Source of the DNA: Dictyostelium discoideum
Lineage: Eukaryota
Direction: 5' to 3'
DNA: 64,000 nt
Assembly: GCA_000004695.1 (NCBI GenBank)
Contig: CM000153.2
Location: 4,960,001 to 5,024,000 of the forward strand
This document shows positions 11,030-62,826 of this stretch, in pieces (within the stretch, counting starts at the first letter, position 1; every line of letters begins with the position of its first letter). The position numbers and the translations under genes are program-made. The notes beneath the pieces were generated by a model, which saw only the letters and a program-made list of their open reading frames with translations, had not been told where the DNA came from and searched no databases.

Positions 11030-11869
11030 TCCTCAATTCACTTTTAGAATAATCAATCTTCATATAATCATTATTAAAAGAACAAGAACCAGAACCAGAA
11101 CAACAACCATTTAAGAGTTCATAATTCGAATGGTCACCAAAATTAGCAAGAGAAGGATATCAATTCCTTCCATCAAAGAACTATCAAAGAAACCTGATAA
11201 AGAATTATCAACAATTCAAGGTTTGCAATTTTAAGAGATGGTTGTTGATTAGTATTCCAATTTATTTACCAGGTTAAACGAATTTAGTTTGATCAGATTA
11301 AATACCTGCTCAATAAATTTTTTAATTTCCTCACACTTCAAATAAAATATAAATAAATAAAAAATAATTATTATTATTATTATTATTATTATTAATTCTT
11401 TTTAACAATATGAAAAAATCATTGAATGTTTATTATTTTTATTTTTATTTTTTTGTGGTGATAATATATATAATATAATATGAACAACAAATGAAAATAA
11501 ATCAAACCCCACCAAACAAAACATCATATTACAATAGTTTTGGTGGGCAAATTTATTTTATTTTTTTAGGGTCGTTTTAAAAAAAAAAAAAATTATGTGT
11601 GGTTAGAAATTAAAAAAATTATTATTTATTTTTATTATTATTAACGAATTACAAAACTTTCAAGCTCACCCTGATTCTACACATTTGAATTTATAGATTT
11701 TTATAATTAATGATTTTTAATATTGGATTTTATTTTTATTTTAAATCTAATATTAGAAATCATTTTTAGGGTAATTTGATTGAAAATTCAGAAAAAACTA
11801 TTTTTTATTTTTTTTTAATTTTTTTTTTTTTTTTTTTAAAAAATAAATTTGGAACCACCAAAGTTTCTT

Positions 11870-11952
11870 TTTTTTTTTGATGTTCTTAGAAGATGACATA
11901 AGAAGATCAGCAATTTAATTATTACAATTAAAAAATTAGATAATAAAAATGA

Positions 11953-12004
<52 letters not shown>

Positions 12005-13040
12005 CAAAGATTGATTCTTATTTAAAGTTTTTTTTTTTTTTATTTTTAATCATTAAATAAAAAACATACAAATAAATAAATAAAAAAGTAAAAAAAAAAA
12101 AAAAAATTAAAATGAATTCAATTGAAAATAATAATAATAAAAATAATAATAAAAATAATAATAAGATTTGGTTAATCACAGGAACATCAAGTGGCATTGG
12201 TTTAGAATTAGTAAAGAAGTTGTTAACATATGGTTATAAAGTTTCAGCATTAACTCGTAGACCAGAAGAGATTGAAAAAGAGATTAAAGAAATTCAATTT
12301 GAAAAAGATAATTTATTAATTGTTAAAACTGATATTACAAATAATGAATCAGTAAAGAGTGCAGTAGAAGAGACTATTAAACAGTTTGGTAGAATTGATG
12401 TATTGGTGAATAATGCTGGTTATGGTTTGGTAGGTTCAATCGAAGAGTTATCAGATTCAGACGTTAGAAAGATATATGATGTAAATGTATTTGGTGTTTT
12501 AAATTTATTAAGAAATTCAACACCACATTTTAGAAAACAAAAATCAGGTTTAATAATTAACATATCCTCTCAAATGGGTTGGGATAATATGGAATATTAT
12601 TCAGCATATAGTTCAACTAAACATGCAGTTAATGCAATTACATTCTCTGCACAAAAAGAGTTAAAAGCATTTGGAGTGAATGTAATATTAGTTAGTCCAG
12701 GTGGATTTAGAACTGGTTTCGTTGCTGGTCAACAATCAAACTTTCAAGTACCTTCAAAATTTATTGATGAATATTCAACTCAATCATTCATTGAAATGTT
12801 TAATAAATATTCACCATATTCAAAAGGCGATCCTGAAAAAGCAGCTGAACTCTTAATTAAATTACCAACAATTGAAGAATTACCAAATAATTTATTCATT
12901 GGCTCTGATTCATTATCAGCTGCCAAACAACAATTACAATCACATTTATTAGAAGCTGAAAAATGGTCTGACCTTTCAATTTCAACTGATTACTAAAGAT
13001 ATTAAAAAAAATAAAATAAAATTAAATAAACCTTTTTTGT
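11870..13040 (+). repeat. Segmental duplication unit A (SDR gene plus ~240 bp 5' flank plus ~45 bp 3' flank)
   Basis: It is near-identical to 18346..19490 and inverted relative to 17100..18215. The coding sequence differs from copy C by about 2 nt. Confidence 0.8.
12112..12996 (+). CDS. Short-chain dehydrogenase/reductase (SDR), classical type, copy A
   Basis: The 294-aa ORF has the TGTSSGIGLE cofactor motif, NNAG, a catalytic YSSTKHAV (YxxxK) motif and an upstream Ser. It appears to be a single exon. Confidence 0.85.
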   Translation: MNSIENNNNKNNNKNNNKIWLITGTSSGIGLELVKKLLTYGYKVSALTRRPEEIEKEIKEIQFEKDNLLIVKTDITNNESVKSAVEETIKQFGRIDVLVNNAGYGLVGSIEELSDSDVRKIYDVNVFGVLNLLRNSTPHFRKQKSGLIINISSQMGWDNMEYYSAYSSTKHAVNAITFSAQKELKAFGVNVILVSPGGFRTGFVAGQQSNFQVPSKFIDEYSTQSFIEMFNKYSPYSKGDPEKAAELLIKLPTIEELPNNLFIGSDSLSAAKQQLQSHLLEAEKWSDLSISTDY

Positions 13041-13255
13041 AAATAATACGTTTGTGTAAATAATACTTTTGTGTATAATCTCTTGTGTGGTTTAATTATT
13101 GAAAAAAATATATATATACTAACAATAAAAATATACAAAAGATAAAACATCAAACAAATACTTATTTAAATAATAAAAAAGAATAGACAAAAATAAAATA
13201 AAATAAAAAAAAAATGAAAAGACAAAAATAAAAAAAAAGTCAAAACTCTTATATT

Positions 13256-13835
13256 TTAAATATTATTAAAAACTGAATTAACATCTATAAAAAAAATTGG
13301 AAAAATATAAACCATGTAATTATTTTCATTTTCAACAACATCATCACCATCATAATAAACCAAACTTGCAACCAATTCATCAATTTCATTTTGAATATTA
13401 GGATCTAAACAATCTTCATTTTCAATTACTTCAAAAATGAAATTGTTAATACTGAGGTTGTTTTTGAATGTGTCACAAGTTGAAAAGTTGCTAGAGTTAT
13501 TTGAAATTTCATTAATGGTATAATTAAAACTATCATTAACATCGGTTCCTTCTTCTCCACTTTTATCTTCTTTTATATTATTATTAATATTTTTATTATT
13601 AATATTATTATTATTGTTAATATCATTGTTGTTTTTGTTATTGTTATTGTTTGGTTTAGTTGGTGGTGCTATTTCATTATTACTATTATCTTGTTGAGTT
13701 TGATTTGTTTTATTTGAACTGTTACTATCATCACTATTACTATTATTATCATTATTTTTAGATGGTAAGTTTTCAGTTTTGATACCTCCATTTACTGTTT
13801 GTGATTCTAACTTATTATTATCATTATTTTTATTA

Positions 13836-13866
<31 letters not shown>

Positions 13867-13881
13867 AATTATTATTATTAA

Positions 13882-13924
<43 letters not shown>

Positions 13925-15793
13925 TTCATTATTATTATTTTGTTTGGAAATTTTATTAACACCACCTTCAATTAATAATTTATTTTTCTTCTCCATTTTC
14001 TTTTTATTTTTCATTTTTAATTTCATTTTATTTTCATTTTCAATTGTTTTTTGAAGGATTAATTGTTGATCTTGTTCTTTCAAAAATTGTTCTAATTTCT
14101 TTTTATCGTCATCCAATTTTGTAGTATTTAAGGGTTGAGATCTTTGTTTTATCTTTTGTAATTTCCTTTTTTGTTTTTCTTTTTCTTTTTCTAATTTTTC
14201 TTCTAATTCAAATTCTTTTAATAAATCATTTTGAGTTTGAATAAATTGATTATACATTTCTTGGCAAAAATCTCTTTCAATCACTTTTTTAGGATCATCT
14301 TTAAAATGTTCGGGTTTAAAAGTAATTTCAATATGATTTGGAATTGAAAAAACTTTTGGTAAAATTTTTAAAACAGGACCACCTGTAGATTTTAAAGAAC
14401 TTAGTTTTTGACTAAATAACCTTTGAATTTCTTCTGCTTTATTCATTTGTATTGGTGGAGAATATTTGGTTGGAAGATATTTTTTTTTTAGTTTTTCTTT
14501 ACTTAATTTACAAACATTTTTAAGGAATTTATTTACAAAGTAACAATTATCATTATTAAGAATTGGTAAATTGATAGATTCATTATCCAATGTTGAAATG
14601 ATTTCTTGTTTAGATGGAAGATAAAATTTGTTTGTGTTTGGTTCTCCAAATTGAAATATTTCTTTTGTTGATAATGATATATTACAATTATAATAATATT
14701 CTCTTAAAAATGAGCAAACGGATAAACCAATTTCATTACCATTTTTATCTCTTGAATTAAGTTTTTTAAATTTATCATATGATACATATTGTTTTTTCAA
14801 ACAAAGATTAAAAATTCTTTTTGAAAATTTAGTTAATCTACAGAATTTTGGAAGTAAGAAATCAATTTGAGGAATTTCTCCAGAACATGCAGAGATTTCT
14901 ATAATTGCATTTTCAAGATTCATTTCAAAATGGCTTGGTAACATTATATTAAGTAAATCTGATACATCCAAATTTACAATTGAATTCCATTTAAACTTTT
15001 CTAATTTCACTAAAGATTCTAAATCCAACATTAAAATTCTTAGAATCATTATCTTTTTACCAATATTTTTAATTTTATTTGAAATACCATCATTCCCAAC
15101 TTGAGATTTCAACCCAGTTGATACTTTAATATATTCACTAATAATTGAATTATAAATTCTCCATTGATCAATTATTTTGAATTTAAAATGAATGAAACCT
15201 TGAAAACGATCATGGGCTTCACGAATATCAATCATTGGTTTATTATTTGGGACATAATCAATATCGGTGACATCATAATATTGTTTAATTAATAATGCTG
15301 CCACTGTTAAAACATCACTTCTTTTAATTTTTGTAATTAAATAATTTGAAATCTTTGTTTTGAAAAAAGTACTTTTATTATAACCAAATTTTAACAGTAC
15401 TTTATAAAAATCTGGACCATTCTCTTCATAGTTGTCCCATCCACCAGCAAAAATTTGAACCATTAATTCCAATGCATTAATGTCATTCAATTTAATTGCT
15501 TCATCAATTAAATTGAAATTGAATAATAATTTTTTTTCATATAGTATTTCATAGAATTCTCTATCGTGACAATTTAAAAGTAATCTATTAATGTCTTTAA
15601 ATGATAAAACAAATTTACTACCTTGTTTCATTAACTCTTTTAATTTAGAAAATTCTTTTTTTTTTATTAAATCTTTCACTTTATTTGCAAGAGAAGTATC
15701 AATTGGAAAGTCATTTTTAAAAATTTGAAAAGTTTTTTTAGTTTTATTTGCATTATGTGGAGGTACAAAAATTAAAGATTTAAAAGATGACAT
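13256..15793 (-). CDS. Hypothetical 845-aa protein with a central Lys/Glu-rich coiled-coil-like segment and a C-terminal Asn-rich/acidic region
   Basis: This is a single long ORF from ATG 15793. The non-repetitive N-terminal 520 aa have coding-like composition. I recognise no domain. Confidence 0.6.
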
Positions 15794-16361
15794 CTTGAAT
15801 TAAAAAAAAAAAAAAAAAAAAAGATTAATAATTAAATTTTTTAAAAGTATAGTTTTTTTATTTTTAATTTTTTTTTATTTACAATTTTACCTTTTATAAT
15901 TATATTATTAGTTTTTTAATTTTTTAATTATTTTTTAATTTTTTATAATTATTTATTTGTTGAATGTATTTTTGTTAATAGATTTTTTAGTTTTTTTTTT
16001 ACTTTGAATAAATTAATATAAAAGTTAAGTATATAAATCAAAGTGATGTATTAAAAATTATAAATATAAATATAAATAATAATAATAATTAAAAAAAAAA
16101 AAAAATTACAATAAAAACAAAATTAGATGATTATAATTTTTTTTTTACCACTTTTCCCACACCAAGTTTTTTTTTTTTTTTTTTTTAATTCACACCCCAA
16201 CACAATTATGATTTCACCTAATAATTGTGTATGGTGATTATTTTTGTATTCAATTAAAAAAAAAAAGAAACTATTTTTGTAAAGTATATTTTTAGCATTT
16301 AAATTAGTTTGTATTTAATTTAAAAAAAAAACTATTATTAAAATTTTACCCCAGTTATATA

Positions 16362-16395
<34 letters not shown>

Positions 16396-17060
16396 ATCAT
16401 TAATCTTTTTTTTTTTAACTGATGATGTTAAAAAATTCAACCACTAAAATTTCCTTTAATTTTGTATATAAAAAATTCTCACAACCTATTGTATCAATAA
16501 TGTTTACCTCATTTTATATTTAAGAGAAACACTTAATTTGCATCTTAAAGGTTTCCACACAAAGTGTAAATTAATTTTTTATAAGTAGTTGAATAGTAAT
16601 AAAATGAAAAATTTAATCCCAATCATCATTATAAGTACCAATGCTATTTCATTTAAAAAAAAAAAAAATTCAAATTGAAAACAAAGTTAAAAATAAATAA
16701 TTACAAAAACAATGAATGACATTAAATTGTAAAAAAAAAATTAATTGACAATAAATATATTTCCAAACCCATTTTTTTAAATCTGGTTTGGAATCGTTTC
16801 AGATTGTGTGGGTGTGTGTATTTTAAATTTCAAAAAAAAAAAAAAAAAAAAAAAATTAAATAATTAAATTATTATTTTTATGTGACCCAAATGAAAATGA
16901 ATAGTATAAATAATCATTTTTTCTTTTTGAAAATAAACTAATAATAAAAATAATAAAAAAAGTAAAGATAAACATCTCTTAAAATAAAATTAATCTACAG
17001 AAGTCCGTTTTGGTTTTTCTGTTGAAATTGAAAGGTTTATTATTTACAAAAAGGTTTATT

Positions 17061-17099
<39 letters not shown>

Positions 17100-17117
<18 letters not shown>

Positions 17118-18120
17118 TTTTAATAATCAGTTGAAATTGAAAGGTCATACCATTTTTCAGCTTCTAATAAATGTGATTGTAATTGTTGTTTGGCAGCTGA
17201 TAATGAATCAGAGCCAATGAATAAATTATTTGGTAATTCTTCAATTGTTGGTAATTTAATTAAGAGTTCAGCTGCTTTTTCAGGATCGCCTTTTGAATAT
17301 GGTGAGTGTTTATTAAACATTTCAATGAATGATTGAGTTGAGTATTCATCAATTAACTTTGAAGGTACTTGAAAGTTTGATTGTTGACCAGCAACGAAAC
17401 CAGTTCTAAATCCACCTGGACTAACTAATATTACATTCACTCCAAATGCTTTTAACTCTTTTTGTGCAGAGAATGTAATTGCATTAACTGCATGTTTAGT
17501 TGAACTATATGCTGAATAATATTCCATATTATCCCAACCCATTTGAGAGGATATGTTAATTATTAAACCTGATTTTTGTTTTCTAAAATGTGGTGTTGAA
17601 TTTCTTAATAAATTTAAAACACCAAATACATTTACATCATATATCTTTCTAACGTCTGAATCTGATAACTCTTCGATTGAACCTACTAAACCATAACCAG
17701 CATTATTTACTAACACATCAATTCTACCAAATTGTTTAATAGTCTCTTCTACTGCACTCTTTACTGATTCATTATTTGTAATATCAGTTTTAACAATTAA
17801 TAAATTATCTTTTTCAAATTGAATTTCTTTAATCTCTTTTTCAATTTCTTCTGGTCTACGAGTTAATGCTGAAACTTTATAACCATATGTTAATAACTTC
17901 TTTACTAATTCTAAACCAATGCCACTTGATGTTCCTGTGATTAACCAAATCTTTTTATTATTATTATTATTATTTCCAATTAAATCCATTTTAATTTATT
18001 TATTTTAATTTACTTTTTTATTTAAAAATTGAATATTTTTTATTTATTTGTTTATTTAATGTTTTTTATTTTAATGATTAAAAAAAAAAAAAAAAACTTT
18101 TAAATAAGAAACAATATATG

Positions 18121-18163
<43 letters not shown>

Positions 18164-18215
18164 ATTTTTGTCATCTAATTTTTTAATTGTAACAATTAAA
18201 TTGTTGATCTTCTAA
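17100..18215 (-). repeat. Segmental duplication unit B (inverted copy)
   Basis: 18181..18214 (tgtaacaattaaattgttgatcttctaagaacat) is the reverse complement of the conserved upstream motif. It carries an internal deletion relative to copies A and C. Confidence 0.75.
17120..17989 (-). CDS. Short-chain dehydrogenase/reductase, copy B (inverted, diverged N-terminus)
   Basis: The 289-aa ORF is about 98% identical to copies A and C but starts MDLIGNNNNNNKK instead of MNSIENNNNKNNNKNNNK. It also has the substitutions F to L (KLIDEY) and Y to H (NKHSPY). Confidence 0.85.
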   Translation of the reverse strand: MDLIGNNNNNNKKIWLITGTSSGIGLELVKKLLTYGYKVSALTRRPEEIEKEIKEIQFEKDNLLIVKTDITNNESVKSAVEETIKQFGRIDVLVNNAGYGLVGSIEELSDSDVRKIYDVNVFGVLNLLRNSTPHFRKQKSGLIINISSQMGWDNMEYYSAYSSTKHAVNAITFSAQKELKAFGVNVILVSPGGFRTGFVAGQQSNFQVPSKLIDEYSTQSFIEMFNKHSPYSKGDPEKAAELLIKLPTIEELPNNLFIGSDSLSAAKQQLQSHLLEAEKWYDLSISTDY

Positions 18216-18432
18216 GAACATTAAAAAAAAAAAAAAATAACCGCAAATTTATTTTTAAAAAATAAAAAATATCTTCTAAAACATTTTTTTTTATTTTTTT
18301 TTAATATTCTAAGAAGGTGACACAAAAAGATCAACAATTTCTCATTTTTTTTTTGATGTTCTAAGAAGATGACACAAGAAGATCAACAATTTAATTATTA
18401 CAATTTAAAAATTAGATAAAAAAAATGATTTA

Positions 18433-18465
<33 letters not shown>

Positions 18466-18557
18466 GCAAAGATTGATTCCTATTTAAAAGTTTTTTTTTT
18501 ACTCATTAAATAAAAAACATACAAATAATAAATAAATAAATAAATAAATAAATTAAA
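17990..18557. promoter_or_regulatory. Bidirectional promoter region between head-to-head SDR copies B and C, with three copies of the TTCT(T)AGAAGATGACAyAAGAAGATCAaCAATTT motif
   Basis: Motif copies lie at 18181..18214 (reverse complement), 18306..18340 (partial) and 18358..18395. The same motif is at 11884..11925 upstream of copy A. Its core is an AAGAAGAT direct dyad. Confidence 0.35.
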
Positions 18558-19490
18558 ATGAATTCAATTGAAAATAATAATAATAAAAATAATAATAAAA
18601 ATAATAATAAGATTTGGTTAATCACAGGAACATCAAGTGGCATTGGTTTAGAATTAGTAAAGAAGTTGTTAACATATGGTTATAAAGTTTCAGCATTAAC
18701 TCGTAGACCAGAAGAGATTGAAAAAGAGATTAAAGAAATTCAATTTGAAAAAGATAATTTATTAATTGTTAAAACTGATATTACAAATAATGAATCAGTA
18801 AAGAGTGCAGTAGAAGAGACTATTAAACAATTTGGTAGAATTGATGTGTTGGTAAATAATGCTGGTTATGGTTTGGTAGGTTCAATCGAAGAGTTATCAG
18901 ATTCAGACGTTAGAAAGATATATGATGTAAATGTATTTGGTGTTTTAAATTTATTAAGAAATTCAACACCACATTTTAGAAAACAAAAATCAGGTTTAAT
19001 AATTAACATATCCTCTCAAATGGGTTGGGATAATATGGAATATTATTCAGCATATAGTTCAACTAAACATGCAGTTAATGCAATTACATTCTCTGCACAA
19101 AAAGAGTTAAAAGCATTTGGAGTGAATGTAATATTAGTTAGTCCAGGTGGATTTAGAACTGGTTTCGTTGCTGGTCAACAATCAAACTTTCAAGTACCTT
19201 CAAAATTTATTGATGAATATTCAACTCAATCATTCATTGAAATGTTTAATAAATATTCACCATATTCAAAAGGCGATCCTGAAAAAGCAGCTGAACTCTT
19301 AATTAAATTACCAACAATTGAAGAATTACCAAATAATTTATTCATTGGCTCTGATTCATTATCAGCTGCCAAACAACAATTACAATCACATTTATTAGAA
19401 GCTGAAAAATGGTATGACCTTTCAATTTCAACTGATTACTAAAGATATTAGAAAAATAAATAATAAAATTAAATAAACCTTTTTGTAAAT
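18346..19490 (+). repeat. Segmental duplication unit C
   Basis: It is a direct repeat of 11870..13040 and includes the upstream promoter-like motif. The flanks diverge at both ends. Confidence 0.8.
18558..19442 (+). CDS. Short-chain dehydrogenase/reductase, copy C
   Basis: The 294-aa ORF differs from copy A by one residue near the C-terminus (EKWYDLS versus EKWSDLS). Confidence 0.85.
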   Translation: MNSIENNNNKNNNKNNNKIWLITGTSSGIGLELVKKLLTYGYKVSALTRRPEEIEKEIKEIQFEKDNLLIVKTDITNNESVKSAVEETIKQFGRIDVLVNNAGYGLVGSIEELSDSDVRKIYDVNVFGVLNLLRNSTPHFRKQKSGLIINISSQMGWDNMEYYSAYSSTKHAVNAITFSAQKELKAFGVNVILVSPGGFRTGFVAGQQSNFQVPSKFIDEYSTQSFIEMFNKYSPYSKGDPEKAAELLIKLPTIEELPNNLFIGSDSLSAAKQQLQSHLLEAEKWYDLSISTDY

Positions 19491-20914
19491 AATAAAACCT
19501 TTTAATTTCATTAAAAAAAAAAAAAAAAACAATAATAAATAAAAAAAAAAGATAACATGTTTGGTATGTTCGGTGGATTTATGTCACCCCTTAAGAACCC
19601 CTTTGGCCACTTCATCTCAATGGATGGAAACTATAATCTTTTCCAATCAACCCTATAGCTTGTAGTCACACAAACAGACTGTCTTCAAATTCATCTAATG
19701 GATTTGATGATTGAATTGTCCAGTAAGGAATATAGAATATGGTCTTTTTTTTATTAAAAAAATGAAAATATTAAAATAAAATGATTTTATTAGAATTTTT
19801 TATTATTTTTATTTATTACTATTATTATTATTATTATTATCATTATTATTATTATTATTATTATTATAATTATTTTTATAAAATAAATATTAATTAAAAA
19901 AATTAGTTTCCCTTTTAAACAAAAATCGATCAAAACTTGATGTAGAATTTTAATTTTAGAATAATATAACCAAATCAAATATTTATTTAAATTTTATGAA
20001 ATTATAAATAAAAATGGTGAAATTGGATTTGATTTACATTTTTCTAAAATTAAAATCCAACGACAAGTTTTGATGAATTATAATGTATTTTAAAGAGAAG
20101 ATGGCTTTTTTCATTAATTATCTACGAAATAATTTTGTAATATCATTATTAACTTTTGATTTGAAGGTTATGGATTTATGTATATCAATAGTATCCCAAA
20201 ATAATTACATCAAATGGTGTCAGCAAAGCCATGGCATCTTTCTTTGATGGAGTTAACTTGAGTACTTTGGTTATAACCATCGTTAACTTTCAAACCATAA
20301 TAATTTTTAATTTTACCAAATCATATTTAATATTTGGTTTGAAAATTAACGATGGTTATAACCAAAGTATATATTTAACTTTCAAAAATGATGGATCCCT
20401 ATGTTTCAATTACATATAAACCAAAATCAACTAAATCAAATTTAAAACAATTAATTATTTTTATAAATAAAATTAATGAAAAAATAAAAATAAAATAAAA
20501 TAAAACTTACTTTGTAATTTGGATTTTCAATCAAAGAATTACTATTTATTAAATCTATTTATTATTATTTTTATTATTATTATTGTTTTAATTCTTGTAT
20601 AATAATTTTTTTTTTTTTTTTTTTTTTTTTCACCATTTTTTAATTATTTTTATTTAATAATATTAATGTGCTACAAGTAACATCCATAAAATAGCAAGTG
20701 GTGTGTTCAAAGGGTAGGAGATTGTGTTTTTTTTTTAGGGTGTGGGAAAATTTTTTGAAAAAAAAAAAATAAAAAAAAACTAAATCAAAATCAATATTTC
20801 ATATTAATTTGGTTTTACTATAAAAACACTCAAGCAAATTATAAAACAAAAAAATTTGATAATAATTGTTTCTGGTGTTGTTTTTTTTGAAACCTTGTTT
20901 TATTATTCGGTTTT

Positions 20915-22595: not shown

Positions 22596-25142
22596 TTAAT
22601 TTTCAAAAGTAATAAATAAATAATAGTAGATATAGAGAGAGAGAGATATCATAGGTATTTATAACTTACATTTAAATTGGAAAATTTGAGCAATAAAGTA
22701 TTGACCATCAACAGAGATACTGATATTGAATTTAGTATTGGAGTAGTTATATTTTAGCATTTCATCATAGTTGGTTACATTACAGGTTAAACTAGAATAA
22801 GTGTGAATGTTGATTTCAGGTTGTGTACATGGTTTACCATCGATTAGAATTTCAAGATTTGCATCACCAAATGATGTACCATATATAGTGATTAAAGCAG
22901 TTTGATCAATATCTGATGTATTTGTAATGGTTGGAGGAGCAAATGTATAGTTTGAATAACCAGTAATTGACGATTGGTAGACTTTTTCAGTGGCAGAATT
23001 TGAACTAGAGATTATTAATGGTTTAGAGCCAGATGTATAGTATGGTGAAAGCGATTTAAGATTTGGTAAAATTACACATTCAATGGTTGTTACATTGATT
23101 GAAGAGATATTACATGGTACTTTACCAATTGTAATGGTTGTAGTATCTTTGGTATAGTTAAAAAAGTAATGACCATTAATAGTAACCATTCCACCACCAC
23201 ATGGTACTGCAGGATTATTATTTTCAATAACAGGTTTCAAAGTGAATGGACCAGCCATATTACTAATTTGATCGCCAAGTTGGAATAGATAGCTTGCAGT
23301 GTTTTTATTTCCTGCTGGATATTGAAACGTAAGAAGATTATGACTACTTTCTACTACTGTACCATTTGCTCTACTGCCATCGAGATAAACAACAGTTATA
23401 ATTGAATTGCTAACGGATTCACCGAGATTATTGCCATTAATTTGAATAGTACCATCTTTTTCTTGATCACTTGATGCGAGGTATGGAGGATTGTAACTAA
23501 CGACGAACGAACCAACTGGTAAAAGATTATAGTAAACATTCATCGTGTGGCTTGAACCGAAACCAGATTTCAAAACACAGGTGAAGGATAAACCATCGCC
23601 ATCTTTCAATGGATCACAAATAGGACCGCCAGGCTCACTCTTAACTGTTAGTGGAACATCTCTACCATCAGAATCTACAGTTCTCATAAAGATACCACTG
23701 ATTATCAAATCACCACCAATTGTATTTGATTTGAAGCTTTGGCCAGCAGTAATGGTTGGAGTGATCTTGAAATTATATCTTGGAGATGTAAATGATTTAC
23801 TACCACCATCACCAACAATAAGATTCATAAAACCAGGTTGTGTATTATTTGGTAGGAATATGAAAATGGTATTATTACTTTCAATAAAAAATCCAGGTTC
23901 TTCTAAAGTTGGAGTAGGCTTTTTCAAAATATTAGTTTTAATATTCGCACCAGTAATTATTGTCATACTAATTACACCAGAGAAATATACACCAGATACA
24001 TTGAAAATCTGTGAAGTACCCCTTTGTGAAACACCTTGAATTAATGGAAGATCATATGATATTTTAATTGTATTTGTTGTGTATTTACCAATCTATATAA
24101 AAAACATCATTTTAAAAAAAGAATTAGTAATTTGATTGTTATGGTTTATATATTATGATTTACTTACAGTTACATTAAGAGGAACATCATAACCAGAACC
24201 ACCATATTCTGAACGACTTGGTATGGAACATATTACACTTTTTGAAGTACCAGCGAAACAACTAATAGGTTTACCACCAAAATGACCACTTATTGTAGTG
24301 CTTGGATTCACACTTAGATGGTCTCCTGTGAAAGTTAAATTACCACCATTATCATTAAGTACTCCTTCCATTACAGTGATTATTGGTAAAAATGTGTAAA
24401 GATAACTTTTATAAAATACATCACATATTGTTACATCAATGGTCCAGTTACCTTGATACTGTGATTCAGGTAATGAAAATACTATGGTGGAGTGAGTAGA
24501 ATCTAGGTTTCCAGTTGGGTTGAGGTTTTCAACGGGATCATTTGAATTAATTTTAATTTGGGTGTTGTAAAGGTTACTTCCTTGAATGGTAATATTTCCT
24601 TGGTCATCGATTGTTGGTTTATTTGGTATATCTCCAGTTTGATATGAAGCATTATAAATTACTCTTGAGCCTGAATTTATAATTAAATCTCCACAGCCTG
24701 GTTGTATTCTCATGGTGAACTGGTCTAAATTGATATTGTATGGTGTTACAATTTTGTTTGCTATATTCAAAGGTTTTATTCTACCATAAACACTTGTACA
24801 AGGATAGTTATATGTGAAATTAACGGATCCTCCTATTGTGGGGACAGATGGAAGGGATGGGATTTCTGGTAAAAAATAAATATCATAGGTATAATCACAA
24901 AGTCTATCCTTGTATGGAAAATTAACAACATCAAAATAAAACTTTCCATCAGTGTCCTTTTCCAGTGTTGCATCAGTTCTATTATTTGGATTTAAAAGAA
25001 TGGAAATAACTTGATCATCACATCGGATTTTGGTTATTTTTGTCTCCGGCCTTTCATTGTTTATTAGATAACAATCCGATTTAACAAATAAAAACCTATA
25101 AATAAAAATAAATAAAAAAATAGTTAAATGTTTTAATTTCAT
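22216..25142 (-). CDS. Tgr (tiger) family IPT/TIG-repeat type-I membrane glycoprotein with ~75-aa cytoplasmic tail (tgrB-like); model join(25142..24168,24092..22670,22556..22216), ~912 aa
   Basis: It starts with signal peptide MKLKHLTIFLFIFIYRFLFVKSDC. Introns run from GTAAGT at 24167 to ATAG at 24093 (75 nt) and from GTAAGT at 22669 to AAAG at 22557 (113 nt), both phase-consistent. IPT/TIG-like repeats such as ITIYGTSFGD...IDGKPC are present. The last exon encodes a TM helix IGIVAIIIFLALIFFAI followed by a tail rich in R/K/E. Confidence 0.75.
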
Positions 25143-25170
25143 TCTTTACTAATTACTAATTGCGGGTCAA

Positions 25171-25227
<57 letters not shown>

Positions 25228-25656
25228 AAAAAGAAAAAAAAAAAAAAGGTTGTGTGTTTTGTGTGTGAAAATAATAATTAAAAACAAATAATAAAAAAAT
25301 AAAAAAATATCTGTGTTAAATTATTGAAATACCCCATTCAAAAAAACAACAACACACACACTAACTGATTTTTAGGGTTGAACGTTTTATTTGTTTTTTT
25401 TTTTATTTTTATTTTTATTATAATATTTATTTGATATATTTCTATTTTTAATTCATTATTTTTATTTTTATTTTTATTTTCAATTTTTTTTTTTTTTCAA
25501 ATATTGGATATTTTTTATTTTTTATTATTATTATTATTTTTTTATTTTTATTTTATTTAATTGTTAATATATATTTTTTTAATTATTTATTTTCTTTATT
25601 TATTTATTTATTTTTTTATTTTTTTTTTTTTTTTATTTTTTTTTTGAACACATGAA
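25143..25656. promoter_or_regulatory. Shared intergenic promoter region of the divergent tgrB-like/tgrC-like pair (~0.5 kb)
   Basis: It lies between two start codons on opposite strands. It is AT-homopolymer rich and carries the C-rich island gttgtgtgttttgtgtgtg at 25250..25270 and acaacacacacactaac at 25350. Confidence 0.5.
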
Positions 25657-28428
25657 ATGATTCATAAAATGTATTTTTTTTTAATACTTTTATTTTCATT
25701 ATTTATTATAGTTTATTCGGCACCAAATCGTAAGTAAATTTAAATTTTTCCAAACATATTATCATTTTGCTTTTTGTTATTTCAAATTAATTAACATGTT
25801 AATTTTATATTAGGGGTAACCAGAAATGAAACTTCTATAGTATATACCTATTCCCTTGATAGTGATTATTATACTCGTTTTGTTATGTATCTAAATGCTA
25901 CTACCTTAAGAACTGATATAGCTCCAAATTATTTTGATTGCAGCCAAATTGTCAACTCAGAGAGATATTGTGTATTCCATTTTGCTGATTCATTTTCAAG
26001 ATTATGGGGAGCCGTTTACAGTAGAGTCTGTACAAGAACAGTATCTGACCCAACGGAGGATTGTCAAAGTACTTGGATCACTGATAATGCTTTTCCAGAA
26101 CCCCTCAATGTAAAATTTAGTGGATATCCAAGTACGTCTGGAGGTGATGTTGTTTTTACTGGCCTTTTTTTAAGATTGGCTGGAGGTCCTAATACTCTTG
26201 CAAATTCTTTTACTAACCCTTCAAAAACCTTTCTTATTAAAGTTCATGGTAATTTCTCTGATCCAAATTTTAATTGTAATAATTTCACTGCAACATTTCC
26301 ACCAAGTTCTGGGTATATCAAGGTATATTTTGATGACACTGGAAAGAGTTCTCTTCAATTACGATATGCTTCACCAACTGTATCAAGTTTTATTCTTGAT
26401 GAATCAAAAAAATTAGTAACAATAAATGGTGATAACTATTTCACAAAGAATTCCTTAGTTCAAGTTTTTTTTGATGGTATTATTCAAAACAATATTAATA
26501 TTACAGTGAATCATTCACAAATTCAAGTGAATAACTTTATTAGAGTTGATCCTGGTCCAATGTCTGTCAATATTACTATAAACGCTGTTTCAATTGATAA
26601 TAATTATACTTATTGTTTCCCAGCAGTGATATCATCAATCTCATCGGTTTCAAATCATTTAGGTGGTGTTGTAACTATTAAAGGTTCAAAGCTATCTTCA
26701 ACTTCAATTATTCCAACAATTAAAATTGGTGATAAACAATGTACATTTATTAAATCAACAACAACTGAATTAGAATGTCAATTAGAACCAAATGAAACTG
26801 GTGGTAAACATTTACCAGTTGATGTTAATTTCGGTGGTTGTAATTCAACAAGTTCTGGTAGTGATGCTGTAACCTTTACATATAGTATTCCAACGCTATC
26901 AAGTGGAACATTATCAAATGGTATAGTTACATTAATTGGTACAAATCTTGGTACAATTAATGATTCATTCATTCAATTAAACTCCAATGGAGCTATTGAC
27001 AATGTAAAGAATGATCAATTTAATATATCATCCGATGAAACTACTGCTACATTTAAATTACCACTATTAAAATGTAAATCATTTTATATTAATTTCACTC
27101 GTGTTGATATTTCAGCAAATAATAAACCTTCAATTTCAGCACCATTATTAATATATGTAATCAATAAACCTACAGTATCAAATGGATCAATAAATATTGA
27201 ATTATATTATATTGATTGTCCAATCAGTCCATCATCAACACCAAGTATTACTGTGGGTAATTCATCATCAGCTACTCAATGCTCAATACCATCATTAAAA
27301 AATTTATCAGAATACTATCAAACAACATGTTCAATACCATATGGTACTGGTACAAATAAACAATTCAAATTCAAATATAATTCAGAGGAAAGTAATAGTG
27401 AATTCTCATATGAACCACCAAAAGTTGAATCACGTTCATTCTCCAAAGGTCTATTTAATATTACAATTAATGGTAATAATTTTGGTAACTCAACATCATT
27501 GATTAAAGTTTATTTCAATGGTAGTGATATTTCATCAGAAATTCAATCATTAAATGATAATCAATTTACATTTAAAAGATTAAATTCATATGAAAATGGC
27601 CCAATTAATATTACTGTAGATGGCAATAGTAATATGGAGCCATCGTTTTATTTAACATTACCACCTGTTATTTATTCTATAATAAATAAAGAAAATAAAA
27701 CAATTGGTTGTGGTGGTCTAATCACAATTTCTGGTAAGAATTTATTAACAAGTGATGATAAATTCAAAGTTAGAGTATTAGCAAATAATGAAAATACTAC
27801 TGTAATAGTTCCCGATGAAAAAACATTAATTGTAAGAGCTAATAATAAAGATAGTCCACTCTTTGTTTCAACATTAATTGGAGATGATTTGGGTCCAAAT
27901 ACAACATTAACATATTTTGAACCAAGAATCACAGTTATTCCAACAGTTAAAAATAAAAAAGATGGTATTTCAATAAGAGTGGGTGGTGTTAGTTTATCAG
28001 GTATTATAAATGCAAGTTTAGGAATTTCATCAGAAAATGTTTCTCTTTCATGTGATTTACAATGTAGTTTATCTCCAAATGAAACATTTTATTTAAGTAA
28101 TCCAATACTAAGTTCAAATGAAAAAGATATAACAAATAGTACTGATTGTTTATCATGTCATTCAATGAATTCAATTGTTGTTGATGAAACATCAGGAGTA
28201 TTATATCTCCAATTAGGCCCAACATCATATCATTATGATGTTAAAATCGAAGAAATTCAATCATCATTAAATCCATCATCATCAAATGGTGGTGAAAGAA
28301 AATCATCAAAACTATCAGGTGGTGCAATTGCTGGTATTACAATTGGTTGTGTTGCTGGTGCTGGTGCTTTAGTTGGTTCTGTCTTTTATTTTAAATTAAT
28401 CACTCGTGTTAAAAAAGCATTCAATTAA
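25657..28428 (+). CDS. Tgr family IPT/TIG-repeat type-I membrane glycoprotein with very short (~11 aa) cytoplasmic tail (tgrC-like); model join(25657..25729,25814..28428), ~895 aa
   Basis: Exon 1 encodes signal peptide M(IHKM)[19 protein letters not shown], then GTAAGT at 25730. The intron is 84 nt and ends TATTAG at 25813, in phase 1 with exon 2. Several TIG domains are present ([31 protein letters not shown]). The C-terminal TM is [22 protein letters not shown], followed by [11 protein letters not shown]. Confidence 0.75.
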
Positions 28429-30192: not shown

Positions 30193-30906
30193 ATGAAATT
30201 ATTATTTATTTTATTAATTTTAACAATAACTATTAAAAATTGTTTATCAATTAATATAAACGATAATAATAATCAAATTATAAATTTAAAAATAAACGAT
30301 ACATCCTATTCAATGGTACCATATCAAGATGAAGCATGTGCTAATTTGGAAGAAAGTATTGGTTTTACATTCCCAAGTTCACCATCAAAAGTAAAAGAGG
30401 TAATGACAGTTTTTGGTCAATTTAATAATAATTTCTGTGTAGTGATTTCAAATGATGGTTCAGGTACATTTGAGATTGAATGGTATATCGATCAAGATTG
30501 TTCAAACATCGCACCAAAATCAAAACCATATTCAACTGAACAATATCAAATTGGGAAATGTTTATACTCAAGTACAATGGGTTCATACTATACTCTAACT
30601 GAGACCGATCAAGTCCAATTCGATGAAAACACATTAATCATTCAAGATACCATCAAACAAGATAATAGTAAATGTAATTCAGTTAGAGAGGGTTATTATA
30701 GTTTTGTTAAAAACTCTACTCAATTCCAAGAAATGAGAGGCTGGGTGACCTTTACTGATACTTATTATTGTACTGACAATTTACAACCATTTTGTTATTC
30801 TTGTTCCGATGAGGGTTGTAATCAACTTTATTTAGAACAAACTTGTGTTCAACAAGATAACTTTAATATTAAATGTTTTGGTTCATCATCATCTTCTTCT
30901 TTCTAA
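30193..30906 (+). CDS. Secreted Cys-rich protein (237 aa), uncharacterised
   Basis: It has a signal peptide MKLLFILLILTITIKNCLS, 18 Cys and a Ser tail. It is a single exon. Confidence 0.6.
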   Translation: MKLLFILLILTITIKNCLSININDNNNQIINLKINDTSYSMVPYQDEACANLEESIGFTFPSSPSKVKEVMTVFGQFNNNFCVVISNDGSGTFEIEWYIDQDCSNIAPKSKPYSTEQYQIGKCLYSSTMGSYYTLTETDQVQFDENTLIIQDTIKQDNSKCNSVREGYYSFVKNSTQFQEMRGWVTFTDTYYCTDNLQPFCYSCSDEGCNQLYLEQTCVQQDNFNIKCFGSSSSSSF

Positions 30907-39192: not shown

Positions 39193-39266
39193 GCCTTAGT
39201 AGCTCAGTTGGTACGAGCGTGAGACTGAAGATCTTAAGGTCGCTGGTTCGATCCCGGCCTGAGGCA
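39193..39266 (+). tRNA. tRNA-Phe (anticodon GAA)
   Basis: The cloverleaf folds cleanly. The acceptor GCCTTAG pairs with CTGAGGC (one G-U pair), the D arm is GCTC/GAGC, and the anticodon stem TGAGA/TCTTA carries loop CTGAAGA. The T arm GCTGG-TTCGATC-CCGGC holds the B box GGTTCGATCC. The discriminator is A, and the A box is TAGCTCAGTTGG. Confidence 0.9.
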
Positions 39267-51318: not shown

Positions 51319-52971
51319 ATGAATAGATTAACAAATATATCAAAAATTAGAAAATCATTAATAGATGGAAAATTAAAAGTGAATGATTTAGTTTTAAATA
51401 AAATCAAAGAGATTAATAAAGTTTCACCAAATCATTTAAATACATTTATTTCACTTCAAGATGAGAAATCATTAGGGAAACAAATTAAAGAGAGTCAAGA
51501 GAGATATGATAATGGTACAAATAAAAGATTAGATGGTATACCAATTGGTGTAAAAGATAATTTCTCAAGTAAAAATTTTAAAACAACTTGTGGTTCAAAG
51601 ATTTTAGAGAATTATATACCAAGTTTTGATTCAACTGTTGTTAAATTATTAAAAGAGGAAGGTGCAATAATTATTGGTAAAACTAATATGGATGAATTTT
51701 CAATGGGTTCATCTTCAACTTCTGGTCATTTTGGTAAAGTAATTAATCCATGGAGTAAACCAAATAATAATAATAACAATGATAATGATAATAATAATAA
51801 TGGAGAGGTTTTATATGTTGCAGGTGGTTCATCAGGTGGTTCGGCAGCAGCAGTTGCTTCAAATTATTGTGTTGCATCAATTGGATCAGATACAGGTGGT
51901 TCAATTAGACAACCATCATCATATTGTGGTGTTGTTGGTTTTAAACCATCCTATGGTTTAATATCACGTTTTGGTTTAGTTGCATATGCTTCATCATTAG
52001 ATACACCTGGTGTTTTAACTAATAATGTTGAAGATGCTGCTGAATTATTAGATATTTTAATTAAAAAAGATCAAGAAAATGATTCAACTTCAATTGAATT
52101 TATAAATAATAATCAAAATCAAAATCAAAATAATGGTGAAAAAAGGAATATTTTAGATGAATTTAATGAAAAATTAAAAAATAAAAATATAAAAGATTTA
52201 GTATTTGGTATACCAAAAGATTATTTAGTTAAAGAATTAGATACAGATATACTTAACCTTTGGAAAGAAGTTGTTGAAGAAATTGAAAAAAGAGGTGGTA
52301 AAGTTGTATCAGTTAGTTTACCACATACTCGTTATGCATTACCAGCTTATTATTTATTAGCAACATCTGAAGCAAGTTCAAACCTTTCAAGATTTGATGG
52401 TGTTAGATATGGTTATAGATTTGAAGAAGAAAAAGATGAAAATAAAGTAGATAATGATAATGATGATGATGATGATGTTGATGAAAATAAAATTGGTATG
52501 GGATTAAAAGATATGTATACAAAAACTAGAACAAATGGTTTTGGCGAAGAAGTTAAAAAAAGAATTATACTTGGTACAATGGCATTATCAAGATCATCAT
52601 ATGATAATTTCTATACAAAAGCTCAAAAGATTAGAAGATTAGTATCAGATGATTTTAAAAATGTTTTCCAAGGTGAAAATAAAGTAGATATTTTAATAAC
52701 ACCAACTGCACCATCTCCAGCATTTAAACAAAATGAAAAAATGGATCCAATCGAAGTTTATGTAAATGATATTATGACAATACCTTCAAATTTAGCAGGT
52801 TTACCAGCATGTTCAATTCCTTTAAAACTTTCAAATTCAAATTTACCAATTTCAGTTCAACTAATTTCAAATCGTTTAACTGATGATAATTTATTATTTG
52901 CAGCTCATACAATTATGAATTTTGATTGTTACAAAGATTTTACATCACTTACACCAAATTATTTAAAATAA
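51319..52971 (+). CDS. gatA: Glutamyl-tRNA(Gln) amidotransferase subunit A (amidase-signature enzyme, organellar GatA)
   Basis: It carries the amidase signature GGSSGGSAAAVAS plus the catalytic Ser-cisSer-Lys context (KDNF...TTCGSK). The N-terminal half is collinear with GatA, with an acidic/Asn insert at about residue 370. Confidence 0.85.
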   Translation: MNRLTNISKIRKSLIDGKLKVNDLVLNKIKEINKVSPNHLNTFISLQDEKSLGKQIKESQERYDNGTNKRLDGIPIGVKDNFSSKNFKTTCGSKILENYIPSFDSTVVKLLKEEGAIIIGKTNMDEFSMGSSSTSGHFGKVINPWSKPNNNNNNDNDNNNNGEVLYVAGGSSGGSAAAVASNYCVASIGSDTGGSIRQPSSYCGVVGFKPSYGLISRFGLVAYASSLDTPGVLTNNVEDAAELLDILIKKDQENDSTSIEFINNNQNQNQNNGEKRNILDEFNEKLKNKNIKDLVFGIPKDYLVKELDTDILNLWKEVVEEIEKRGGKVVSVSLPHTRYALPAYYLLATSEASSNLSRFDGVRYGYRFEEEKDENKVDNDNDDDDDVDENKIGMGLKDMYTKTRTNGFGEEVKKRIILGTMALSRSSYDNFYTKAQKIRRLVSDDFKNVFQGENKVDILITPTAPSPAFKQNEKMDPIEVYVNDIMTIPSNLAGLPACSIPLKLSNSNLPISVQLISNRLTDDNLLFAAHTIMNFDCYKDFTSLTPNYLK

Positions 52972-60929: not shown

Positions 60930-62826
60930 AATATTATTAATTGATAACTAATATTTCCTTATTTCTTTATTTAGTACCTTTGAATATGGAAATTTAAGCA
61001 GATTACCAGATTTTGAAAATATTTTTAATGAAAATATTGAGTATATAGATATAAGTAATAATATAATTACTGAGAATATAACTAGAACATTAGAATGGCC
61101 AGGAAGAACTATTACACTTTACCTAAGAAACAATCATTTGAAAGGATCAATCGATGAAAGTTGGTGCAAATTTAATCTTGAGATTTATGGAAACTCTCTA
61201 AGTGGTGAAGCTCCATCATGTTTTGTTTGCCACATTAATAGTAATTCCTTTGCTATAACTGGTAACGCATTCTCAAATATGGAACTAAAACCACCATGTA
61301 CCTCTGTGATTTTAAATTTATGGTATGATAATTCGACAAAACTATTGTTTTTGTATGGTCAAGATATTGGATTTGCAAGATCAGATTTTAAATTATCACC
61401 ATCTTCATTCAACCCTTATTGTGGCCTTTTGGATGAAAAGGTTTATGAGAATGTTAGAAATGGTTTGTTTTGTTTAAATTATAGTCTACCTGGTCCAGTT
61501 CCCTTACATATAAATATTACCTACCCAAAAATGCCCTCAAATTCTCCAGTTAAAACATTTGAAATCTCAGCTTACAATATGTATTTACCATTAATTAATA
61601 GTGTTTCAAAAGATTCAAAAACCAATCTATATACTATCGATGGTCAATACTTTGCATACAATAGTACTGTTATTACCGTTTTAGTTGATTCTCAAATTTG
61701 TATTGTAGTATCTTGTAATTTTAGAGAAATCAAATGTTTACTATCGAAAAACAACAACAATAATAAAAACAACATGATTAATACCAATTATTTACTATCC
61801 GTTCAAATTATGAATGTTTCATCAAATTTCAATTTAACTAAATGTCCAAATGATTGTAGTGGCGCTGGTATTTGTGATTTAAATTTAGGTATATGTTCAT
61901 GTAATTCAAATAGAATATTTGATGATTGTAGTGGTTTCAAATGTATTGGAGATTGTACTAGTTTAACAAATTCTGAATGTAACTTTACAATTGGTAAATG
62001 TGAATGTATATCAGGATGGGAAGGTGATGATTGTAAAACTCAATTATTTTGTCCAAATGATTGTAGTGGTAGTGATGCAGGTAATTGTGATTATATAACC
62101 AAAACATGTAATTGTAAACAAGGTAGAACATTTGCATGCAATACTGATTGTTTAAACGATTCAAAATGTAATTTTACAATTGGCAAATGTGAATGTATAC
62201 CAGGGTGGGAAGGTGATGGTTGCAGTATTCGACCAAAATGTCAAAATGATTGTAGTGGTGGTGATGCAGGTAATTGTAATTATATAACTAAAACATGTAT
62301 TTGTAAACAAGGTAGAGCATTAGATGATTGTAGTGGATTTGCATGCAATATTGATTGTTTAAACGATTCAAAATGTAATTTTACTATTGGCAAATGTGAA
62401 TGTAAAGATGGATGGGAAGGTGATAATTGTAACACTAAGCAACCAAATTGTCCAAACAATTGTAGCGAATCAGGTATTTGTGACCGTTCAACTTTGAAAT
62501 GTTTATGTGACTCTGATAGATTATTTGAAGACTGTAGTGGATTGAAATGTATTATAAATTGTAATAACAATTCAATATGCAATAATAAAATTGGTAAATG
62601 CGAATGTCTATCAGGTTGGTTTGGTGATAGTTGTGAAAATTCAGAAAAATCTTCATCTGAATCCTCTGAATCTTCTGAATCTTTATCAAAATCAAACAAA
62701 ACCAAAGTTATATTACTATGCACTATATTGCCATCTATTGCATTGATAGGTATAATTTTGGTGGTCATTTCATTAAAAAAAAGAAAAAATGAAGATCAAT
62801 ATAAGTACCACATTAAATTAAAATAA
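59240..62826 (+). CDS. Receptor-like type-I membrane protein: signal peptide, LRR-like N-terminal region, at least 6 tandem tenascin-type EGF-like repeats, TM, short basic tail; ~7 exons (approx. join 59240..59315,59480..59699,59847..60245,60337..60510,60589..60684,60792..60872,60975..62826)
   Basis: Exon 1 is MKILVLLLFFSICIVSYSVQIEQND, then T|GTATGT. The 5' sites at exons 3 and 4 are canonical (GTAAGT/GTAATA) and phases are consistent. The weakest junction is exon 5/6. EGF repeats have the form CPNDCSG.G.C......C.C......DDCSG. The TM is ILLCTILPSIALIGIILVVISL and the tail KKRKNEDQYKYHIKLK. Confidence 0.5.

Follow-up and report, generated by a model that had tools for sequence, protein, structure and literature searches.

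Recombination between inverted segmental duplications at non-allelic positions (non-allelic homologous recombination) inverts the segment that lies between them. The closest described relatives of the locus considered here are the long inverted repeats that pairs of homologous genes form in Caenorhabditis, better conserved in structure than in sequence (Zhao et al. 2007, PLoS One 2:e262, PMC1803023), and the palindromes of the human Y chromosome, for which arm-to-arm gene conversion is described (PMC8600007). In this study, we have characterized three copies (A, B, and C) of a short-chain dehydrogenase/reductase (SDR) gene in a window of 64,000 nucleotides (nt), meaning the whole stretch of DNA analysed, from Dictyostelium discoideum (assembly GCA_000004695.1, contig CM000153.2, positions 4,960,001 to 5,024,000 of the forward strand). 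With a probability of roughly 0.8, the cluster combines an old duplication (A/B), homogenization of the copies by gene conversion, purifying selection, and structural instability caused by recombination between inverted copies.

As in Caenorhabditis (PMC1803023), the cluster contains divergent or convergent pairs of paralogues whose repeated part includes intergenic or promoter sequence, the inverted structure is kept between related species, and the arms are closer to each other within a genome, which points to active homogenization. It differs from those repeats in having three copies, one pair of which flanks a 4-kb gene-bearing segment while the other is head-to-head, and in showing inversion and deletions directly between strains. 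The likeness to the Y palindromes and to inversions by non-allelic recombination is that conversion would keep inverted repeats near-identical and that recombination between arms would invert the spacer. However, the Dictyostelium arms measure 1.1 kb as against 9 kb to 1.45 Mb for the Y palindromes, they are 93–95% identical outside the coding sequence (CDS), and they belong to the autosomal-type genome of a haploid amoeba.

Anatomy of the SDR cluster

Self-BLAST of the window, by which the copies were counted and the unit limits and identities defined, returns exactly three copies of an SDR unit of about 1.15 kb (all E-values 0). Together with the segments that separate them, they are arranged as follows.

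11864–13048, plus strand: SDR unit A, with promoter, intronless CDS at 12112–12996 (294 amino acids), and short 3' flank (self-BLAST, list of open reading frames, three-way alignment)
13049–17084, no strand: middle segment M, unique, between the inverted units A and B (BLAST of M and both flanks against loci L002, L004, L006, and L010)
17085–18213, minus strand: SDR unit B, with intronless CDS at 17120–17989 (289 amino acids) and core-promoter block at 18123–18099
18214–18337, no strand: spacer between the head-to-head units B and C, containing a degenerate extra upstream element (18307–18333) that faces C
18338–19494, plus strand: SDR unit C, with intronless CDS at 18558–19442 (294 amino acids; self-BLAST, three-way alignment)

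An earlier note on this DNA, made from its letters, had described a triplicated SDR gene in the orientations A+, B−, and C+, with B and C head-to-head and a unique gene of 845 amino acids between A and B; self-BLAST and the list of open reading frames bear out all of this. Its units of about 1.15 kb with some 240 bp of 5' flank are also correct, the shared 5' flank measuring 248 nt in A, 224 nt in B, and 220 nt in C, with a shared 3' flank of about 50–80 nt after each CDS. Unit C resembles A up to 19494 and B up to a point near 19520. All three SDR reading frames are intact.

Over whole units, A and C are 95.5% identical (1188 columns, with 20 mismatches and 10 gap openings), A and B 93.6–93.8%, and B and C 93.4–93.6%, and among the three CDS identity is 98.3–99.5%. 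In the 834-nt core CDS, A and C differ at 4 nt and one amino acid (S288Y), B and C at 10 nt and two amino acids, and A and B at 14 nt and three amino acids, copy C having no base of its own. The distance of about 2 nt that had been given for A and C is therefore too small, since to the 4 nt in the CDS must be added about 19 flank substitutions and indels in A/T runs. With a G+C content of 21%, the window contains long A/T runs and reading frames rich in Asn. Pure A or T runs of 27–54 nt lie within or border the units (11960–12001, 17059–17112, 18126–18160, and 18437–18463); their lengths vary among the copies and they are the source of most gaps in the unit alignments. The sole other self-match in the 64 kb is an unrelated direct repeat of about 300 nt with 80% identity, at 61961–62465 within the open reading frame span 61138–62826.

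Copy B had been credited with a remodelled N-terminus and three substitutions. Its N-terminus is indeed different (MDLIGNNNNNNKK versus MNSIENNNNKNNNKNNNK, with MDLIG versus MNSIE as the first codons and a shorter Asn tract in B) and three amino acids do separate it from A, although at the nucleotide level the distance is 14 nt. Because the length of the Asn tract varies in every copy of every strain examined, the difference looks like slippage in an AAT repeat and not like functional remodelling. The inverted repeat formed by B and C, which had been placed around 18.25 kb and called near-perfect over 2.4 kb, is present (17085–19477, 2.39 kb), but its centre lies near 18.28–18.30 kb, in a spacer of 124–163 bp, and it is near-perfect in the CDS only: the arms are 98.8% identical there and 93–95% over the whole arm. 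With 93.4–95% overall, the arms fall short of the identity of at least 99.9% over the whole arm that marks a palindrome of the Y-chromosome type.

Shared architecture and probable homogenization of the copies

Orthologous loci were recognized by the same outer flanks: genes for a kinase and a GATA factor border them at one end, TIG/Tgr-like genes at the opposite end. Their gene maps were obtained by tblastn, and their junctions and orientation by BLAST of M and both flanks. Four assemblies contain such a locus.

L002: wild D. discoideum, GCA_054859355.1, orthologous locus with an SDR trio
L010: wild D. discoideum, GCA_054859385.1, orthologous locus
L004: D. cf. discoideum, GCA_054859205.1, orthologous locus with the order A(+)-X(−)-B(−) and a truncated B
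L006: D. cf. discoideum, GCA_054859235.1, orthologous locus with the order A(+)-X(−)-B(−)

In all four, the junctions of A and of B with M occur with the same flanks and the same order as in the window, so that the copies are positional orthologues; X in these formulas is the 845-residue gene carried by M. Segment M is about 93% identical to that of the window in L002, 92% in L010, 88% in L004, and 89% in L006, with 96–97% between L002 and L010. As their M identities to the window (88–89%) are lower than those of L002 and L010, the two D. cf. discoideum genomes are likely to be outgroups. Since they share with the window the A(+)-X(−)-B(−) layout and its junctions, the inverted A/B pair flanking X would have arisen before D. 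discoideum and D. cf. discoideum diverged.

The similarity of the copies gives a different impression of age. Core-CDS distances are 0.5–1.7% within the window and 1.0% within L006, as against 4.4–4.7% between positional orthologues, and the synonymous divergence (dS) behaves likewise: 0.066 for A-B, 0.017 for A-C, and 0.047 for B-C in the window and 0.029 for the L006 pair, compared with 0.165 between the window and its positional orthologues in L006. In neighbour-joining trees the copies group by genome (window trio in 293 of 300 bootstrap replicates, L006 pair in 300/300, L002 trio in 298/300, and D. citrinum sets in 298–300 of 300), and positional groupings appear in 0/300. Paralogues of the same genome are thus closer than positional orthologues, as in concerted evolution.

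The same pattern of homogenization within genomes recurs in D. citrinum at another locus, where dS among SDR copies is 0.023 within a strain and 0.10 between strains. Two D. citrinum loci (L001, 2218–10867, and L005, 6958–14471) each hold three direct, same-strand SDR cassettes, one of them truncated in L005, which adjoin 2OG-Fe(II) oxygenase and Nup84 genes. Neither has flanking sequence in common with the window and, being a different locus, they cannot polarize the events described here.

Further evidence comes from individual sites. When polarized against 12 outgroup copies, derived bases are common to C and A at unit positions 331, 379, 538, and 871, and to C and B at positions 493, 511, 517, and 1077. 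These splits are incompatible, and because no tree free of exchange yields shared derived sites for both A+C and B+C, the copies are likely to have exchanged sequence. Moreover, A and C differ at 19 of 269 flank positions as against 3 of 182 synonymous sites (Fisher p=0.008) and 4 of 885 CDS bases (p=2e-9), and, the flanks being more divergent than the CDS, the latter would have been homogenized more recently. Among the 14 variable sites of the core CDS, 11 are synonymous, and the ratio of nonsynonymous to synonymous divergence (dN/dS) is about 0.07–0.09. With this ratio, only one to three amino-acid differences between copies, and all catalytic motifs intact, the neofunctionalization that had been envisaged for the duplicates finds no support.

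The alternative that A, B, and C are simple recent segmental duplications of this lineage, arisen independently in other genomes and without gene conversion, as the earlier note's phrase of a recent segmental duplication would suggest, agrees with the CDS identities of 98.3–99.5% and with A-C flanks that are only about 6–7% different. It is also in keeping with the presence of copy C in D. discoideum proper only, so that at least C may be comparatively young. Against it stand the four other assemblies, two D. cf. discoideum among them, that have A(+)-X(−)-B(−) with conserved junctions, since independent duplication into identical positions in each lineage is implausible. Neither the derived states shared by A and C at some sites and by B and C at others nor an A-C flank divergence about four times the synonymous divergence is expected from it. 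Recent duplication is thus largely refuted for A/B, and as an account of the whole cluster we regard it as unlikely. As paralogues are more similar within genomes than by position and carry mosaic sites, the likeness of the copies is better attributed to gene conversion than to youth. Repeated interlocus gene conversion under purifying selection is the parsimonious explanation: non-allelic conversion would repeatedly homogenize the copies, while selection would purge amino-acid changes.

Inversion and deletions between assemblies

The orientation of M differs among assemblies while the outer flanks remain collinear. In L004 and L006, M is collinear with the window, whereas in L002 and L010 it is reversed as a whole, with X inside it and the 3' flanks of A and B as its two ends. 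Because M is collinear in both outgroups, the orientation found in the window is probably ancestral, and a single inversion with A and B at its limits, in the common lineage of L002 and L010, would explain the orientations observed. Its breakpoints are bracketed to 11702–13051 and 17046–18343 of the window, spans that hold units A and B, and because the repeats are homogenized no finer placement is possible. In our reading, exchange between A and B, acting as inverted repeats, would flip the 4-kb segment carrying X.

At the left junction, L002 and L010 have an extra segment of about 190 bp (L002 3480–3680; L010 9648–9842), situated just 5' of the SDR copy at the first position, in place of the upstream element. 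It is in opposite orientation in the two genomes and is lacking in the window, L004, and L006; this segment, at the left edge of the inverted haplotype, represents either a micro-inversion or a small insertion. An invertible expression switch was considered and rejected for the M inversion: every gene, X included, keeps its own promoter in either orientation, so that the flip changes no linkage between promoter and gene.

The head-to-head centre of B and C is missing in L004 and L010, with different breakpoints. In L010, only the 3' portion of about 560 nt of the copy at the B position is kept, to the equivalent of window position 17590, and is joined to about 21177; by comparison with its sister L002, the 5' half of B, the spacer, and all of C have clearly been deleted. 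In L004, B is kept to 17652, and 311 nt further on comes the equivalent of 19597–20057, a stretch situated just downstream of C in the window; copy C has likely been lost from this genome. These comparisons suggest that deletions readily arise where B and C meet head-to-head. The earlier expectation that the repeats are a substrate for inversion or deletion is therefore realized in both respects, by the reversed M of L002 and L010 and by the missing B/C centre of L004 and L010.

Copy integrity varies as well. All three copies of the window and both copies of L006 are intact, whereas L002 has a frameshift in its middle copy, L004 an in-frame stop in its first copy, and in L010 both copies are defective. 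Next to the truncated B of L004, between it and a TIG gene, lies a gene for a DDE_Tnp_4 (PIF/Harbinger-type) transposase (16588–17350). The sequence just 3' of unit C in the window (19555–20057) is conserved with L004 (81%) and absent from L002, L006, and L010. By eye, a short open reading frame starting ATGTTTGGTATGTTCGGTGG can be seen near 19555; a small gene, or else an exon, may be present here.

Several points weigh against the reading of an old, homogenized, and unstable cluster. The three-copy layout of the window is that of the assembled sequence. Furthermore, the exact A and C proteins were not found in a collection of 15 billion proteins in which B, DDB_G0286853, and gatA are present (as AX4 and KAM99418xx entries); the exact X protein was likewise not found there. 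Copies A and C may be modelled differently or missing in the annotations concerned, or the window may come from another assembly. The strain phylogeny by which the events are polarized consists of identities of this same region and not of the whole genome, and L004 and L006 may have no copy C either because it was lost or because it never existed there. Part of the low divergence could be due to purifying selection and to conservation of promoter elements; the low dS and the mosaic sites could not. Finally, expression of all three SDR genes is presumed.

The first two of these points would also fit an assembly artefact, in which one SDR gene has been over-assembled into three or orientations have been mis-joined, as near-identical 1.1-kb repeats are hard for short-read or Sanger assemblies. 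Nevertheless, the copies differ at 14 CDS sites, in their N-terminal codons, by a 13-nt promoter deletion, and by many flank indels, each has its own unique junctions, and independent assemblies of other strains, with contigs on the megabase scale, have two or three copies at matching positions. With distinguishable copies and a layout that recurs, a collapsed or over-assembled repeat, which the earlier note had left as a possibility, is scarcely credible.

The SDR cassette, its protein, and its surroundings

The 5' flank of each unit is a compact putative promoter, conserved across copies, strains, and species. From its distal end it comprises an upstream element (GATGTTCTTAGAAGATnACATAAGAAGATCAAC), a second block (AATTAGATAATAAAAATGATTTG), an A-run, a block (ATGCAAAGATTGATTCYTATTTAAA) with a TATA-like box, a T-run, and the ATG. 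A TATA box followed by oligo-dT is a core-promoter layout known from Dictyostelium. The elements are located as follows.

11883–11909, plus strand: upstream element of A, TTCTTAGAAGATGACATAAGAAGATCA, with two direct AGAAGATnA half-repeats (pattern search), kept in the D. cf. discoideum and D. citrinum copies
12002–12026, plus strand: core-promoter block of A, ATGCAAAGATTGATTCTTATTTAAA, with TATA-like box and then T-run (conservation)
18123–18099, minus strand: core-promoter block of B (conservation)
18199–18213, minus strand: truncated upstream element of B, with one 13-nt half-repeat deleted and AGAAGATCAACAATT kept
18359–18385, plus strand: upstream element of C (pattern search)
18464–18488, plus strand: core-promoter block of C (conservation)

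A search of the window with the pattern of the upstream element gives three matches, with none expected, all of them 5' of SDR copies. Copy C has two such elements in tandem, the degenerate one at 18307–18333 and that at 18359–18385. The deletion noticed earlier in the promoter motif of copy B is real and amounts to 13 nt: where A has TTCTTAGAAGATGACATAAGAAGATCA, B has TTCTT, a 13-nt gap, and AGAAGATCA. Each unit would thus be a self-contained gene cassette of about 1.15 kb, consisting of the upstream element, the TATA-like box with its T-run, an intronless CDS, and a short 3' end.

As the promoter has been copied too, retroposition of the unit is excluded. A mobile cassette, in which the 1.15-kb unit is carried by a transposable element or acts as one, could be suspected from the occurrence of the same promoter-to-3' units at other loci, in D. 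citrinum (L001 and L005) and in D. discoideum (L003, a strain with a single SDR copy in an Arf/TIG region), and from the DDE_Tnp_4 gene at the orthologous locus in L004. Nonetheless, alignments and Pfam searches disclose no terminal inverted repeats or target-site duplications at the ends of the window units and no transposase with them, SDR domains being the only Pfam domains within the units, and the unit ends match the conservation of promoter and 3' end, as for an ordinary gene. We consider such mobility highly improbable.

All three proteins match the Pfam family PF00106 (adh_short) over profile positions 1–189 of 195, with 182 bits against a cut-off of 26.6 (E=1e-53), and are therefore members of the family. 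Copies A, B, and C all have the segments TGTSSGIG, NNAG, DVNV, ISSQ, and YSSTK, and thus carry the TGxxxGIG and NNAG motifs, a Ser-Tyr-Lys centre, and the catalytic Asn, together with an Arg-Arg pair after strand 2. In this family, such motifs are known to have catalytic and cofactor roles. The copies probably encode a classical SDR dependent on NADP(H), a preference suggested by the Arg-Arg pair. Full-length adh_short similarity, the TGxxxGIG/NNAG/YxxxK motifs, and a length of about 280 residues are shared with the classical family, from which the window protein differs by the Asn-rich N-terminal tract typical of Dictyostelium and by falling below the NCBIfam cut-off, without a characterized orthologue. 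The nearest NCBIfam model, PRK06180 ('oxidoreductase'), gives 234 bits, below the subfamily cut-off of 298, and among solved structures the nearest is 3m1a (a 'putative dehydrogenase'). Among the top 120 matches, the best homologues outside Dictyostelia are nearly all from Bacteroidota (Chitinophaga, Mucilaginibacter, and Flavobacterium) or metagenomic, at 40–47% identity, and none comes from another eukaryote. An old bacterial origin is possible, best matches alone being weak evidence for so ubiquitous a family.

The protein of copy B is exactly EAL64022.1 / XP_637526.1, DDB_G0286849 of strain AX4, and other reading frames of the window are exact AX4 matches as well (DDB_G0286853 at 30193–30906 and gatA at 51319–52971). 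The locus presumably lies on chromosome 4, judging from the dictyBase gene numbering. Literature searches retrieved no paper on DDB_G0286849 and neighbouring gene identifiers, and nothing relevant on the new Dictyostelium assemblies. Of the remaining features, two lie within or near the cluster.

13256–15793, minus strand: gene X, 845 amino acids, Asn-rich, with no Pfam family and found only in Dictyostelium (list of open reading frames)
22659–28428: adjoining IPT/TIG-domain genes (Tgr-like, Ig_TgrO1), where the nucleotide identity to L002 is about 91%

Homologues of X in D. citrinum, D. dimigraforme, and D. firmibasis (L007–L009) have no SDR neighbours and are for this reason uninformative on the SDR repeats. 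The sole tRNA gene found in the window is a tRNA-Phe (GAA) at 39193–39266.

The number of SDR copies at the locus ranges from three intact in the AX4-like window to none intact in strain ACTFIR, and an effect of copy dosage, already raised as a consequence of the triplication, is possible. A broader view would see here, beside the polymorphic TIG/Tgr-like cluster, a recurrent structural hot-spot of the D. discoideum species complex in which the SDR cassette has repeatedly been copied (in at least three chromosomal contexts), homogenized, inverted, deleted, and pseudogenized in a strain-specific manner, with copy number as a selected, ecologically relevant dosage polymorphism instead of neutral churn. 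We put this forward as speculation, and think it rather doubtful.

From a practical point of view, SDR knock-outs in AX4-type strains face three near-identical genes, and recombination constructs could target any of the copies or trigger rearrangements. Short-read mapping, the calling of single-nucleotide polymorphisms, and expression estimates are ambiguous across 11.8–19.5 kb. The similarity of paralogues is no clock at this locus, and a duplication date drawn from CDS identity would be wrong several-fold. The cluster is a clear new example of known genome dynamics and not a new kind of system, and it offers a worked example, in a social amoeba and from a handful of assemblies, of gene conversion, of an inversion bounded by inverted repeats, and of head-to-head deletions.

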